A DNA stretch of 64,000 bases from an uncultured Clostridium sp. GTDB lineage: Bacteria > Bacillota > Clostridia > TANB77 > CAG-508. The position numbers were made by a program, and so were the translations under genes. The notes below the pieces were generated by a model, which worked only from the letters and a program-made list of their open reading frames with translations, was not told where the DNA came from and ran no database searches. Below are positions 5,018 to 13,982 of the stretch, piece after piece (position 1 is the stretch's first letter; each line of letters opens with the position of its first letter). Location of the stretch: NCBI GenBank assembly GCA_947647595.1, contig CANSKZ010000007.1, positions 1,229-65,228 on the forward strand, in the 5' to 3' direction.

Positions 5018-5280
5018 TTAGGTGTAGGCAATTCTTCTGGCATAGTTCCGTCCTGCCTGTTTAATTGCTTTTCTAACTATTTTCCCAATTTTATTATGAG
5101 TATCGCAAGCTTTCTTTTCAGTGTCAACTTTATCTCTTTTTAATCTTGATTCTGTTTGTGTTATGCGAAATAAATTAGCTGCAATTTCTTCACTTCCCAT
5201 ATTATCTAAAATATCTTCTCTATATCTTAATCCTTTTCTTTTGGCAATATCATCAGCCGTTTCTCCATTGGGAGAATTCT
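5018..5280 (-). pseudogene. DinD-like protein, C-terminal remnant (3' part of gene split by insertion of element A)
   Basis: Open frame NSPNGETADDIAKRKGLRYREDILDNMGSEEIAANLFRITQTESRLKRDK... with no start codon, TAG immediately upstream; resembles DinD C-terminus and continues the DinD-like N-part at 13405..13982. Confidence 0.5.
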
Positions 5281-5386
5281 AATAAGGACAAAATTTTTCT
5301 TATAGATTTCTTCCAAAATTTTATTGTGTTAGATAGCCCTTTAAAGATATAAATTATTTAGTCAAATTTGTAGTGAAAATCAATTT

Positions 5387-5764
5387 ATGGAGGTTTTAAC
5401 TATGATAGGGATAACTTATCACAAAGAAGGAGATTTTTTCGTTCCTGACTTATATTTGGAGAAGGAAAATTATGAAAATGATTATATTATTGGAAAGTAT
5501 GGTCATTTAAGATTAGAATATTTAAAAAATCAAAAGAGAGCTGAATATATTATAATGTTTATGAACAAGACTTTAAGAAAGCATATTGTAGAAAGTGATA
5601 AACAAGCTAAAAGAAGACTTAAAATACTTATGGCACAAATGCTAGAAAAAAATCCCATTGATGAAAATTTAAAAAATACTAACCCTTTAAAATGGATTGG
5701 ACTCATGAATAATTATAAGCATTCAGTTGAAGAAATTATATTTAAAGAATTTATATACTGCTAA
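5387..5764 (+). CDS. tnpV: TnpV-family transposon protein
   Basis: 125 aa; DFFVPDLYL...YGHLRLEYLKNQKRAEYIIMFMN.TL.KHI pattern typical of TnpV (Tn4451); paralog of ORF 18035..18439. Confidence 0.65.
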   Translation: MEVLTMIGITYHKEGDFFVPDLYLEKENYENDYIIGKYGHLRLEYLKNQKRAEYIIMFMNKTLRKHIVESDKQAKRRLKILMAQMLEKNPIDENLKNTNPLKWIGLMNNYKHSVEEIIFKEFIYC

Positions 5765-5773
5765 TATAAGAAT

Positions 5774-5810
5774 AAAGACATATCATACAATAATACTATG
5801 ATATGTCTTT
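5774..5810. terminator. bidirectional terminator hairpin (AAAGACATATCATA-loop-TATGATATGTCTTT)
   Basis: Perfect 14-bp inverted repeat between convergent tnpV(+) and DUF2000(-) genes. Confidence 0.5.
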
Positions 5811-5822
5811 ATTAAGTTTATT

Positions 5823-10073: not shown

Positions 10074-11363
10074 ATGGACAAAATAAATTATTCAGTAGCT
10101 AGAGTAGAAACTTATACTAAAACAAGTATAACTAAAGCTGAAAGACACAACGAAAGAAAAAACGAATCATATTCTAATATGAATGTTGATTTAGAACAAA
10201 CACCCAATAATATACATTACAAAAAATGTAAAACTACCTACAATGAAAAGTTAAAAGAAAAACTTGATAACGGAGAGGTATCCTTAAGAGGATTACAGAA
10301 AAATGCAACTTTATTTGATGAACTCATATTTGATATTAACTCTGATTATTTTGAAAAGCATGGTGGTTATGAATTTGCAAAAGAATTTTACGAGAAAGCT
10401 TTTCACTTTGCTGAAGAAGAAATGGGAACTGATAACATTATATCAGCAGTTATGCATGCAGATGAACTAAATACAGCTTTAACAGAAGAATATGGAAAAC
10501 CTATCTATCATTATCACTTGCATGTTGTAGCAATCCCTGTTGTAAGGAAAGAAGTAAAGTGGACTAAAAAGTGTAAAGATAAATCTTTGGTTGGAACAAC
10601 AAAAGAAATAATCAATCAAGTAAGTCATAGTAATAAATGGAAATCAGACAAAGCAACTGACTCGCATGGAAATACTTTATATAATAAAAATGGAAAAGCA
10701 ATTTTAATAAAATCATATAGCTTATTACAAGATAGATTTTTCAAATATATGTCTGATAGTGGTTATAAAGATTTTATTCGTGGTGTAAAAGGGAGTCAAC
10801 AAGAACATTTAGATGATTTACAGTTTAAAATCAAAAAAGATACTGAAAGACTAGAAAGCATTACAAATAAAGTTGAAGAAAAGGAAAATTCATATAATGA
10901 GTATATAAAGTATGACAAGCAAATTGAAGATATTTCTAACTTAGGTAAAGAAAAGAAATTTATTAAAAAAGTTGAATTAAATAAAGAAGATTATGAAAAT
11001 TTAACACTATATGCTAAAAAAGGAATTGTTGCAGATAAAAAAATATATGAGCTGAATAACAGAATTGATAATTTAAGAAATGCAGTAGATAAGTGGAAAT
11101 CTTTATATGATGATATAGTAGAAAAAACAAAAGATTATTTCCATGCTATCAAACTTGCACCACAAAAAGTTACAAATTTCTTTAAAAGTCTATTTGATAA
11201 AGAGAAACAAGATGAATTAGAAAGACAACGACTTGAACAAGAAAAAATACAGGCTGAACGAAAGGCTCGTGAAGAAGCAAAAGAAAAAGCAAGAATAGAA
11301 AAGCAAAAATTAAAGAACTCTCCTGAATACAAGAAAAGGAGGGCTGACAGAGATGCAAGATAA
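10074..11363 (+). CDS. mob: MobV-family plasmid recombination/mobilisation relaxase (Mob_Pre)
   Basis: Start at ATG 10074 (RBS aaagga); motif [25 protein letters not shown] and motif [28 protein letters not shown] (HxDE...PHxH) of MobV relaxases; long coiled-coil C-terminus. Confidence 0.8.
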
Positions 11364-11619
11364 TATATTTTATAGATTAGAGTTAACAAATGAAGAATAT
11401 GAATATGTAGAAAATCTAAAGAAAGAATATTACGAAAAATTAAGTAAAATGACTAAAGAAGAAAGATTACAGTATTTTAGAGATAACTATTGTAATGAGC
11501 AAAAGTTGAACTTTGAAAAAGAAATAAACGGCACAATATACAAAGTAAATACTCACTTTGATGTAAATGCTGAAGAAAGCATTTTGAAAAAAATTTTTAG
11601 ACTAACAAAAAAATCTTAA
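11353..11619 (+). CDS. hypothetical small protein (position analogous to TnpW)
   Basis: 88-aa ORF overlapping mob stop, immediately upstream of the serine recombinase. Confidence 0.35.
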
Positions 11620-11725
11620 GAATCACTTGAAGTATAAAAACGAATATGATATTATGTGAACACTACAAATTAAAACTTTGTAATACTTTATATCTTATTC
11701 GGCTGTCTAAAGGAAAGGAGTTGTT

Positions 11726-13393
11726 ATGGGACAGTCAAATAACGAAAAAATAACTGCTTTGTACTGCCGTTTATCAAGAGATGATGAATTGTCAGGAGAA
11801 AGCAATAGCATAAAAAATCAAAAATCAATTTTAAGTAAATATGCTAAAGATAATCATTTTATAAATACTAAATTCTTTGTAGATGATGGATATTCTGGAA
11901 CAAGTTTTACAAGACCTGCATTCGTTGAAATGATGGAACTTGCAGAACAAGGACATATTGGAACAATTATAGTAAAAGACCATTCAAGACTTGGTAGAAA
12001 TAGACTTATAGTAGGTCAATTATTAGAAGAAGATTTTGTTAGACTAAATATTAGATATATTGCTATCATGGACAATATTGATACTGATAAAGGACTTAAT
12101 GATTTTCTTCCTATACAAGATTGGTTTAATGAAATGCATGCTAAAAACACAAGTCAAAAGGTTCGAGCAGTATTTAAAAATAAAGGTAATTCAGGTATCC
12201 CTTTAACTATTAATGTGCCATATGGTTATAAAAAAGATCCTTTAGATAAAAATAAATGGATTATAGATGAACCAGCTGCAGAAATAGTAAGAAGAATATA
12301 TGATTTATGTATTCAAGGATATGGAACTCATCAAATATGCAATATATTAAAACAAGAAGAAGTTCCAACTCCAAAAGAATATAAAGCAATCCATGGCTTA
12401 TGCAATTATCATATATCTGAAGTCAAGTATTGTTGGCAGGATAGGTCTATATATGACATCTTGTTCAGACAAGAATATATTGGAGATACAGTAAATTTTA
12501 AAGGTACAACTAAATCTTTTAAAGATAAAAGTAAAATTTATTTTCCAAAAGAACAATGGAAAATCTTTAAAAACACACATGAGCCTATCATTGATGAAGA
12601 AACTTGGAATACTGTACAACGCATTCGAGAAAATAGACAACGTCCTACTAAGATTGGTAAAATAAATATATTTTCAGGACATTTATTTTGTAAAGATTGT
12701 GGCTCAAAATTATATTATTGTACTTCGAGAAGTTATACAAAAAATAGACATTTTTATAGATGCTCAAAATATAAAAATACTTCTTCTAAATCATGTACAA
12801 GTCATACTATTAGAGAACATATCTTAAAAGAATTAGTTTTAGAAAATATTAAACAAGTCCTATCTTATATCCGTTCTTATGAAGATTTATTCATAAAACA
12901 AAAACTTGAGACTTCACTTGAAGGACAGAAAAAAATAGACATCATAAACAAAAAATTATTATCACAATATGAAAACCGAATAAAAGATATTGATAACTTG
13001 ATACAGCATATTTATGAAGATAACATTTCTGGCAAAATTACAGATGAAAGATTTACTACTCTATCATTAAATTATGAAAAAGAACAAAAAGAACTTAAAA
13101 GTAAAGTTCAAGAATTAGCCAATAAGCTCGATACAACTAAACAGCAAGAACTAGATTTAACATCTTTTGTTAGTAAAGTAAAACAATACACTGAAATTTC
13201 AGAACTTACGCCAGAAATTATAAATGAATTGATTGATAAAATATATGTATATCAATCAGAAAAGGTAAATGGTAAACCAACTCAACAAATAGACATTTAC
13301 TATAATGGGATTGGAATTATAAATATTCCACTAAATGAATATGAGCTAGAAAATGCTTTTCAGGAAAGTATTAAAAAAATGAGAACAGCTTAA
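11726..13393 (+). CDS. large serine recombinase (TnpX/TndX-like)
   Basis: 555 aa; resolvase catalytic domain ([11 protein letters not shown]...S..NQ), recombinase domain, Cys-rich zinc ribbon ([11 protein letters not shown]...CSKYK..C) and coiled coil; stop about 35 bp inside the right IR of element A. Confidence 0.85.
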
Positions 13394-13404
13394 TCTGTAC
13401 TATT

Positions 13405-13982
13405 TTAAAGTAATGGAGCACATACCAAAAATTGTCCTTGTTGGTAGTGCTCCTTGTATAAACCTTTATACCCAGCATTATGAAATTTATCAAAATTCTT
13501 AACTCCTGCATTTTTAGCTGTTTGATTAAGTGAATAATTACCTTTTCTAGTTAAGTTTCTTTGATAAAATCTCTTTTCATCTTCTGTTAATGAACTATAT
13601 TCCTTTTCACTAATTTCTTGTTTTCTAGTTTGAATTGCAAAATATGTTTGTGCAAGAGCAATAACTTTTTTTCTTGTATCTCCATTTTGTGCTATTAAAT
13701 AACAAGCATAACGTGTTAATTTATAATCTTTTTGTTTTCTTTCTGCTCCTGAACCTATTTGCACCATTTTGTCGACATCGACAAAATGGTCAAAAACAGT
13801 AATATCACTGTTTTTACAAGATTCTTTTGCTTTATTTATTACATTTTCAAATTTTCGCCATTCTTTATAATTTAAAACTGATTGTAATTCTCTAGCATAC
13901 CAAAATTCAATTTCATTTTCGTCAATATGTTTTATATCTTAAAAAGTTTTAATATAATTTTCTTTATTATCTAGTTTATTCA
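13405..13982 (-). pseudogene. DinD-like (DNA-damage-inducible protein D family) gene, N-terminal part; in-frame TAA at codon 15 and 3' end replaced by element-A end sequence
   Basis: MNKLDNKENYIKTF*DIKHIDENEIEFWYARELQSVLNYKEWRKFENVINKA...KMVQIGSGAERK... read in one frame with an internal TAA (13938-13940); C-terminal 16 aa are encoded by the element A terminus; continuation found at 5018..5280. Confidence 0.55.

Follow-up and report, generated by a model that had tools for sequence, protein, structure and literature searches.

Positions 5270-13453 of a 64,000-nucleotide stretch of DNA from an uncultured Clostridium sp. (GenBank assembly GCA_947647595.1, contig CANSKZ010000007.1; the whole stretch analysed is referred to here as the window) hold an 8,184-bp integrative mobilisable element (IME) that splits a dinD gene. 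We conclude that this is very probably an element of the clostridial TnpX/TnpV/TnpW/MobV type, which was inserted by conservative site-specific recombination at the DNA encoding the DinD motif GYKGLY/NGET (the slash marks the point of insertion), and which is flanked on either side by the dinucleotide TT (5268-5269 and 13454-13455). The original prediction, made by a model from the sequence alone, had described a serine-recombinase mobilisable element interrupting a DinD-like gene, and this description stands: both gene halves are present, their join restores the reading frame, and the unoccupied site is found in a metagenomic contig (L002). The individual features that it described were recovered at, or within 1-2 bases of, the places where it had put them. 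The left and right attachment sites (attL and attR) and the adjoining gene halves are as follows.

5018-5269, minus strand: 3' part of dinD, from codon N of ...GLY/NGETADDI... to the stop codon; TT at 5268-5269 is the attL copy of the crossover dinucleotide
5270-5303, plus strand: left terminal inverted repeat, GGGAGAATTCTAATAAGGACAAAATTTTTCTTAT; matches the plasmid copy L001 from TTGGGAG onward; kept in 20+ loci
13420-13453, plus strand: right terminal inverted repeat, ...AAAAATTGTCCTTGTTGGTAGTGCTCC; homology to L001 stops at CTCCTT; kept in 40+ loci
13454-13983, minus strand: 5' part of dinD, translated from the ATG at 13983 (Pfam Bro-N); TT at 13454-13455 is the attR copy of the crossover dinucleotide

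On the minus strand, the 5' frame of dinD reads MNKLDNKENYIKTF, a stop codon, DIKHIDENEIEFWYARELQ...FHNAGYKGLY and then runs into 16 foreign codons (KEHYQQGQFLVCAPLL and a stop) that end at 13405, a break after GYKGLY that had been noticed from the translation and is plainly seen there. The frame without a start at 5280-5018, which translates as NSPNGETADDIAKRKGLRYREDILDNMGSEE..., had been taken for the missing DinD C-terminus, and the two halves do fit contiguous parts of one DinD protein. Deleting 5270-13455 gives the plus-strand sequence ...TTTCTCCA-TT-GTATAAACC... (in a longer form, the predicted empty site is ...CCGTTTCTCCA-TT-GTATAAACCTTT...) and an uninterrupted minus-strand frame (...NAGYKGLYNGETADDIAKRKGL...) in which the motif ...GYKGLY/NGETADDI... 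is restored. Joining the flanks in silico had been proposed as a check, and it bears the proposal out: besides restoring the frame and the invariant motif GYKGLYNGET, the joined protein, with one in-frame TAA repaired, scores 358.5 bits with the NCBIfam equivalog model for DNA damage-inducible protein D (NF008573), above its cut-off of 242, in a single stretch that extends from profile position 6 to 279 (of 288). When it is compared over its full length with seven intact homologues, identities are 84-93%, and the 20 residues spanning the junction are invariant in the alignment with them. The unoccupied site in L002 consists of an uninterrupted dinD and a downstream neighbour of 374 amino acids; the joined window sequence aligns to it in one high-scoring segment pair (HSP) of 2,282 bp at 96.45% identity, which crosses the junction, and the expectation that the window would allow the empty site to be reconstructed is borne out in this way. 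The 2-bp identity TT is common to attL, attR and the empty site, which fits the 2-bp crossover of serine recombinases (PMC5704250).

The repaired codon is a TAA at dinD codon 15 (13941-13939), overlooked in the original prediction and private to the window: the codon is GAA both in the empty-site contig L002 and in an occupied relative, L041. The C-terminus of the window dinD ends AGRNYARRIAYT and a stop. A post-insertion frameshift (the other frame would read GGTMPEELPTPKK) was considered for this ending and rejected; because the same ending is common to many intact homologues of 259-260 amino acids, it is a lineage variant and not a sign of decay. DinD C-termini in the lineage come in two versions, one of 259-260 amino acids ending AGRNYARRIAYT and one of ~275 amino acids ending GGTMPE(E/D)LPTPKKSLKQLEKE..., which differ by a 1-nt frame change and are both seen as intact genes (window 5018-5060; homologues P0007, P0017 and others). 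One contig, L003, has an occupied dinD together with a second, intact dinD ~7 kb away (7419-7907 and 14149-14940).

The ends of the element were set by homology breakpoints against the copy on plasmid pD610-HI2 (L001) and by comparison of about 40 related loci, retrieved via the recombinase from species-representative genomes, in which the same ends, flanked by TT, recur. Homology to L001 opens at TTGGGAG, that is, TT/GGGAGAA (window 5268/5270), and stops at GTGCTCC/TT (13453/13455); the left end therefore reads TT/GGGAGAATTC... at 5270 (also given as TT/GGGAGAA) and the right end ...GTGCTCC/TT at 13453. The terminal inverted repeat is imperfect, about 33 bp long, and has AAGGACAA as its conserved core. 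Local alignment of one end against the other scores 14, against 5.9 +/- 1.25 for shuffled ends (0/2000 reach 14), while among random pairs of interior 40-mers 5/2000 reach that score. Both repeats and both copies of TT are intact in the window element. The terminal repeats originally proposed, AAGGACAAAATTTTT (5284-5298) and AAAAATTGTCCTT (13427-13439), are present but do not mark its limits; they form the core of the longer repeat, and the ends lie 14-16 bp further out. Similarity of the terminal repeats in related copies, which had been singled out as a point on which the idea could fail, is conserved among the related loci.

The choice of target can be read from the junctions of close relatives. 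A set of 15 genome loci was defined by a recombinase at least 94% identical (90% for the partial match L059) and by the right end TTGTCCTTGTTGGTAGTGCTCC; 12 of them are joined to dinD at exactly the codon used in the window, and the other three (L009, L010 and L013) lie elsewhere. A further 14 metagenome contigs match the 24-nt right end exactly, and all are joined to ...(S/A)GYKGLY. Counting the window, 12/15 genome loci and 14/14 metagenome contigs, 27/30 junctions lie at the same dinD codon, which means that this junction was found in 26 contigs besides the window. When the loci inserted in dinD are compared, identity is 95-97% in the recombinase region and only 71-86% in the adjoining dinD, and in other species the occupied dinD adjoins rpoD/dnaG, an aminoacyl-tRNA synthetase gene or pgm/UDPGP. 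Because the recombinase is so much better conserved than the dinD alleles, and because the genomic contexts differ, the insertions are independent and do not descend from one inherited event. As judged from these junctions, the recombinase subfamily is site-specific for a conserved coding attachment site (attB) in dinD. Close relatives of the window element use this codon in many other gut Clostridia, an unusually strict target for an element of a kind that is otherwise well understood. All members examined have TT as their flanking dinucleotide, save four distant ones, which have AA. We also considered whether the element is specialised in hitch-hiking by way of a target carried on other elements, and rejected this as a general rule, given the rpoD/dnaG, aminoacyl-tRNA synthetase and pgm/UDPGP contexts seen elsewhere. 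Recombinases with a DUF4368 domain have been described as mostly multi-targeting and rarely site-specific (bioRxiv 10.1101/2021.11.05.467528), and a dinD-specific subfamily would be a modest addition to that picture.

Other branches of the family behave differently. A sister subfamily, whose recombinase is 75-77% identical (L015, L018, L020, L022, L029, L032 and L001), has the same TT at many different sites and sits in the loops of terminator-like palindromes, e.g. AAAAAAATCCAACGA-TT-AGGTTGGATTTTTTT in L018. A more distant class (L046, L047, L053, L054, L062, L064, L070-L074 and L077), with a recombinase 62-65% identical, different ends and the core GTGTACTTAA / TTAAGTACAC, recurs at conserved flanks of its own (...GTCCTAACCCAGT on the left, CCCCTATGAGTT...GGGGGCTCTGCGAGGCAATAAA on the right); its recombinase gene often faces a second large serine recombinase gene in convergent orientation, and the element sometimes adjoins an intact dinD.

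The gene content agrees with a mobilisable element of this type. Gene identities were taken from Pfam profiles and, in some cases, also from NCBIfam models with their cut-offs, and the element's features, with its candidate origin of transfer (oriT), are as follows.

5387-5764, plus strand: tnpV (Pfam TnpV, E = 1.1e-30)
5823-6251, minus strand: cargo gene for a DUF2000 protein (Pfam DUF2000, E = 1.6e-31; found too in L041 and L076)
6404-7499, minus strand: yhcG (DUF1016_N and PDDEXK nuclease domain) in two frames (Pfam on both open reading frames; shift site CTT-C-GGA at 6812-6806, extra C at 6809)
7503-8048, minus strand: cargo gene def, peptide deformylase (Pfam Pep_deformylase, E = 1.3e-46; NCBIfam NF001159, 154 bits, cut-off 125)
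8074-9396, minus strand: cargo gene pepC, aminopeptidase C / bleomycin-hydrolase-type cysteine peptidase (Pfam Peptidase_C1_2, E = 2.1e-120)
9429-9504, both directions: divergent promoter-like sites from a consensus scan, TTGAAA-17-TATAAT (minus, toward pepC) and TTGACA-17-TATTTT (plus, toward mob)
9885-10026, plus strand: candidate oriT, with hairpins at 9900-9934, 9956-9989 and 9996-10026 and a predicted nick at G9996/T9997
10074-11363 (open frame from 10035), plus strand: MobV/Pre-type relaxase (TnpZ-like), 429 amino acids from the ATG (Pfam Mob_Pre, E = 1.8e-37)
11353-11619, plus strand: tnpW (Pfam TnpW, E = 3.1e-9)
11726-13393, plus strand: TnpX-like large serine recombinase, 555 amino acids (Pfam Resolvase, Recombinase, Zn_ribbon_recom and DUF4368)

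The TnpV, the MobV-type relaxase and the 555-amino-acid large serine recombinase named in the original prediction are all recognised by Pfam. The recombinase has an RLS catalytic motif at residues 15-17, and among proteins of solved structure its best match is the TnpX catalytic domain (PDB 2MHC, E = 2.4e-32, 52% identity over 117 residues). Its gene, with tnpW upstream, reads outward, and its stop at 13393 leaves 60 bp to the true right end, where some 35 bp had first been supposed. The open reading frames of the recombinase, TnpV, TnpW and the relaxase are full length when compared with relatives. Among the element's nine genes, Pfam recognised no conjugation gene, neither a coupling protein nor a component of a mating pore. 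The cargo genes pepC, def, that for the DUF2000 protein and yhcG are passive passengers, and none is known as a resistance gene. At the boundary between the 5' end of yhcG and the 3' end of def, 100 bp (7417-7516) match, at 90% identity, a sequence without annotation that occurs on 56 Enterococcus plasmids. The divergent promoter-like sites are the best of the region and are putative at most, since the whole scan gave 82 sites against 62.7 +/- 8 in shuffles of this AT-rich DNA. An Rfam scan of positions 1-22000, aimed at structured RNA in the 640-bp spacer between pepC and mob, returned two tRNAs only, both outside the element.

The palindromic candidate oriT noted at the outset gains from comparison. 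The block at 9885-10026 is near-invariant across nine elements, although identity between their recombinases is only 63-97%, and it forms three predicted hairpins with a few compensatory changes, in a layout that resembles pMV158. In the pMV158 oriT, inverted repeat 1 (IR1) is followed by 8 nt and the nick TGTG/TTATAC (PMC5863519); in the relatives of the window element, the second hairpin is followed by 8 nt and then by the predicted G/T step in GTGGG/TTACATAC, with TTA(C)ATAC. The nick-region motif ATAGTGGGTTAC is invariant in 8 relatives, and the window (9982-10007) reads ATAG-GGGTTAC, with one T lost.

By analogy with TnpX and TndX, the 555-amino-acid recombinase would bind both ends of the element, make staggered cuts at the central TT and exchange the strands. 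TnpX recombines 2-bp identical sequences without any other protein of the element, and TnpX and TndX each carry out both excision and integration alone (PMC5704250). The product would be an excised circle with the joint ...GTGCTCC-TT-GGGAGAA... (in a longer form, ...TTGGTAGTGCTCC-TT-GGGAGAATTCTAAT...), which would integrate into the dinD attB, ...TTTCTCCA-TT-GTATAAACC.... By analogy with MobM, the MobV relaxase would nick the circle at the oriT upstream of its own gene, at the predicted G9996/T9997, and a single strand would leave by way of the mating pore that a conjugative element in the same cell provides. Because the IME encodes neither a coupling protein nor a mating pore, transfer must rely on such a helper. 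A scan of the reconstructed circle joint found no pair of -35 and -10 boxes across it, and a Tn4451-style promoter over the joint was rejected as part of the model.

The interrupted dinD is itself carried by a second mobile element, which had been suspected from the start: the outer element has its own relaxase, NikA, TnpV and large serine recombinase, and its synteny is kept in L041 and L072.

16113-20270, minus strand: backbone of the outer element that carries dinD (Pfam; the same block adjoins dinD in L041 and L072)
16113-17486, minus strand: MobA/VirD2 relaxase of the outer element (Pfam)
17458-17778, minus strand: NikA-like protein of the outer element (Pfam)
18035-18439, minus strand: second TnpV, of the outer element (Pfam)
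18452-19753 and 19773-20270, minus strand: second large serine recombinase, of the outer element, split (Pfam)

The outer recombinase is split into open reading frames of 165 and 433 amino acids in the window, L066 and L072, and is a single frame of 613 amino acids in L041. Homology of the outer element with L041 and L072 stops near 20,893-20,912, next to tRNA-Tyr; the genes for tRNA-Tyr(GTA) and tRNA-Met(CAT) (20888-21062, minus strand), just past this point, may mark the outer boundary.

Other explanations of the split gene have to be set against a mobile, site-specific IME. It is extremely improbable that the two dinD pieces stem from two partial genes or from a chimeric assembly. Such an origin is conceivable a priori, and the 5' piece does contain a stop codon, but the pieces abut exactly, with nothing lost or duplicated save the TT, the same junction recurs in 26 independent assemblies, and the idea is refuted by the single-stretch match to DinD, the alignment with homologues and the one HSP to the uninterrupted gene and its neighbour in L002. 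A chance landing in dinD of a low-specificity, Tn4451-type mobilisable transposon would be in keeping with the mostly multi-targeting habit of the DUF4368 clade, with the low integration specificity of Tn4451 (PMC5704250), with the many sites used by the sister subfamily and with three close relatives (L009, L010 and L013) that lie outside dinD. We nevertheless hold it to be quite unlikely, as it has to face 27/30 subfamily junctions at one dinD codon, in dinD alleles that are only 71-86% identical and lie in differing contexts, next to a recombinase region that is 95-97% identical.

More serious, and in our view possible although we lean against it, is that the element is an immobile fossil, that is, one inserted long ago and passed down along with the outer element, with excision and transfer lost. 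L041 contains the same inner-in-outer composite in the same dinD, collinear at 89-92% identity across both junctions, and because of this shared, collinear composite the simplest view is that the window insertion is older than the divergence of the two lineages; the nonsense codon private to the window dinD, the private 1-nt deletion in the predicted nick region, the split outer recombinase gene and an exact-sequence look-up that found no identical copy of the recombinase on record point the same way. On the other side, the recombinase, TnpV, TnpW and relaxase frames, the terminal repeats and the TT copies are all intact, the cargo of the inner element in L041 has no def, which indicates turnover since, and the age of an insertion does not imply that activity has been lost. 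Returning to a mobile, site-specific IME, several of these observations count against it, and others must be added: the specificity is strong and not absolute, given the three relatives outside dinD; TT is the minimal shared identity and the cleavage site is putative; the relaxase scores 61 bits with the NCBIfam MobV model, under its equivalog cut-off of 100; the deletion shortens the spacing between hairpin and nick in the window from 8 to 7 nt; and excision, circle formation and transfer are proposed by analogy, for an element known here from assembled sequence alone. The deletion may impair mobilisation of the window copy, which was probably inherited rather than newly inserted; the insertion may be old and is possibly immobile, and with backbone frames and both ends intact, activity of the window element is possible. 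The original description of the unit as complete and probably recently active is not supported in view of the composite shared with L041 at ~90% identity, the dinD TAA and the nick-region deletion.

The cargo gene yhcG is split at the same place in ten diverged elements, including the Klebsiella plasmid copy. The extra C (GAA CTT C GGA AAA GG, 6812-6806) is invariant in these ten elements, and relatives with an intact, single-frame yhcG, whose proteins are up to 94-95% identical, read GAACTT-GGAAAAGG without it. At pS values of 0.25-0.60, the ratio of nonsynonymous to synonymous differences (pN/pS) ranges from 0.11 to 0.34 in the upstream part of the gene and from 0.04 to 0.24 in the downstream part. 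In the 36 codons that follow the extra C directly, ahead of any start in the downstream frame, 24/31 variable columns fall on third codon positions of the +1 frame. As judged from these substitution patterns, both frames of yhcG are under purifying selection, and the selection tests led us to reject the gene as a decayed cargo pseudogene. The simplest reading is that yhcG is a candidate for programmed +1 ribosomal frameshifting at CUU-CGG-A, comparable to the +1 frameshift site of prfB, CUU-UGA-C. We found no literature on a frameshift in yhcG.

Taken together, we tentatively suggest, and consider somewhat less likely to hold in full than to fail in some part, that this DUF4368 subfamily acts as a true integrase with a portable attB (the GYKGLYNGET DNA), that its sister targets the loops of hairpins, and that yhcG is expressed only via a programmed +1 frameshift. 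If so, attB would be present on chromosomes and on mobile elements across many Clostridia, which would allow the element to nest in other elements, and yhcG would be a new case of bacterial recoding. With attL, attR, attB and the joint fully resolved for a TnpX-like recombinase whose core appears to be TT and whose natural attB is a highly conserved coding sequence, the window recombinase and its 75%-identical sister with another target logic offer a ready pair for probing what determines specificity in DUF4368 recombinases, which are of interest as tools for genome integration. For annotation, dinD 'pseudogenes' in these organisms are integration sites, and the split yhcG is probably no pseudogene. 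In addition, because it is the same backbone that brings aac(6')-Ie/aph(2'')-Ia to IncHI2 plasmids, the pool of elements in gut Clostridia is connected to clinical resistance plasmids.

The original prediction had placed the element in the Tn4451/Tn5397 family, a label that holds in part: the gene set is of the Tn4451 type, while the TT dinucleotide, the position of the attachment site downstream of the recombinase gene, the strict target, the 39% identity to TndX and the lack of conjugation genes do not fit it. Like Tn4451 and Tn4453, the window element has a TnpX-type DUF4368 large serine recombinase (52% identical to the TnpX catalytic domain), TnpV, TnpW, a Mob/Pre relaxase (tnpZ) with an upstream oriT block and no conjugation genes, and the same 2 bp flank both of its ends and occur a single time in the empty site. 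It also shares the cyclic gene order of Tn4451, X-V-cargo-Z-W. In contrast to Tn4451, where the flanking dinucleotide is GA (as it is in Tn4453), the attachment site lies upstream of tnpX and TnpX is 707 amino acids long, the window element has TT, an attachment site that follows the 3' end of the recombinase gene and precedes tnpV, and a recombinase of 555 amino acids; it also has no catP and no spare backbone frame for tnpY, and it strongly prefers one coding target (27/30 junctions). The Tn4451 circle joint is reported to form a promoter for tnpX (Lyras and Rood 2000, as cited in PMC9765467), unlike the joint scanned here.

Like Tn5397, the window element encodes a large serine recombinase of the same clade, at the end of the element, with a preference for one conserved coding sequence; TndX prefers the DNA of a Fic domain in C. 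difficile, with the central dinucleotide GA (PMC4430133). Unlike Tn5397, which is a 21-kb Tn916-like conjugative transposon, it is a non-conjugative IME without a Tn916-like module, and it differs in its TT dinucleotide and in a recombinase to which TndX is 39% identical. A nested arrangement is known from Tn6104, a TnpX/TnpV-type element with flanking 2-bp repeats that lies within the larger mobile element Tn6103 of C. difficile (PMC3158075). The window resembles it in having a nested TnpX/TnpV-type element with a 2-bp flanking repeat, and differs in that the outer element is a small recombinase/relaxase element, not a conjugative transposon, and in that the target is dinD, which is chromosomal in other species.

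The sister copy on pD610-HI2 (L001 = NZ_MG288680.1, 209425-217058; 84% identity over 63% of the query in a megablast search against plasmids, recombinase 76% identical) shares the backbone, the ends, the TT flanks and the extra C of yhcG, but has aac(6')-Ie/aph(2'')-Ia as resistance cargo, an insertion outside dinD and a Gram-negative host; IncHI2 plasmids from Klebsiella, Citrobacter, Enterobacter and Salmonella carry the sister with this cargo, which places an IME of Firmicutes type on plasmids of Gram-negative hosts. With pMV158 and its relaxase MobM (MOBV1), the window element has in common a Mob_Pre relaxase and three inverted repeats upstream of mob; the hairpin, 8 nt and GTGGG/TTACATAC of its relatives match TGTG/TTATAC in part, at a putative nick, and the spacing of 7 nt in the window differs. 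Precedents thus exist both for nested TnpX-type elements (Tn6104 in Tn6103) and for a preference for a coding sequence (TndX and Fic). Site-specific serine-recombinase IMEs have been defined by Guedon et al. 2017 (PMC5704250), and the window element has what characterises them: its own recombinase, a relaxase and candidate oriT, neither coupling protein nor mating pore, very short direct repeats at its flanks and a defined target gene. By function, as predicted from its genes, and by gene content, it is a Tn4451-like IME.

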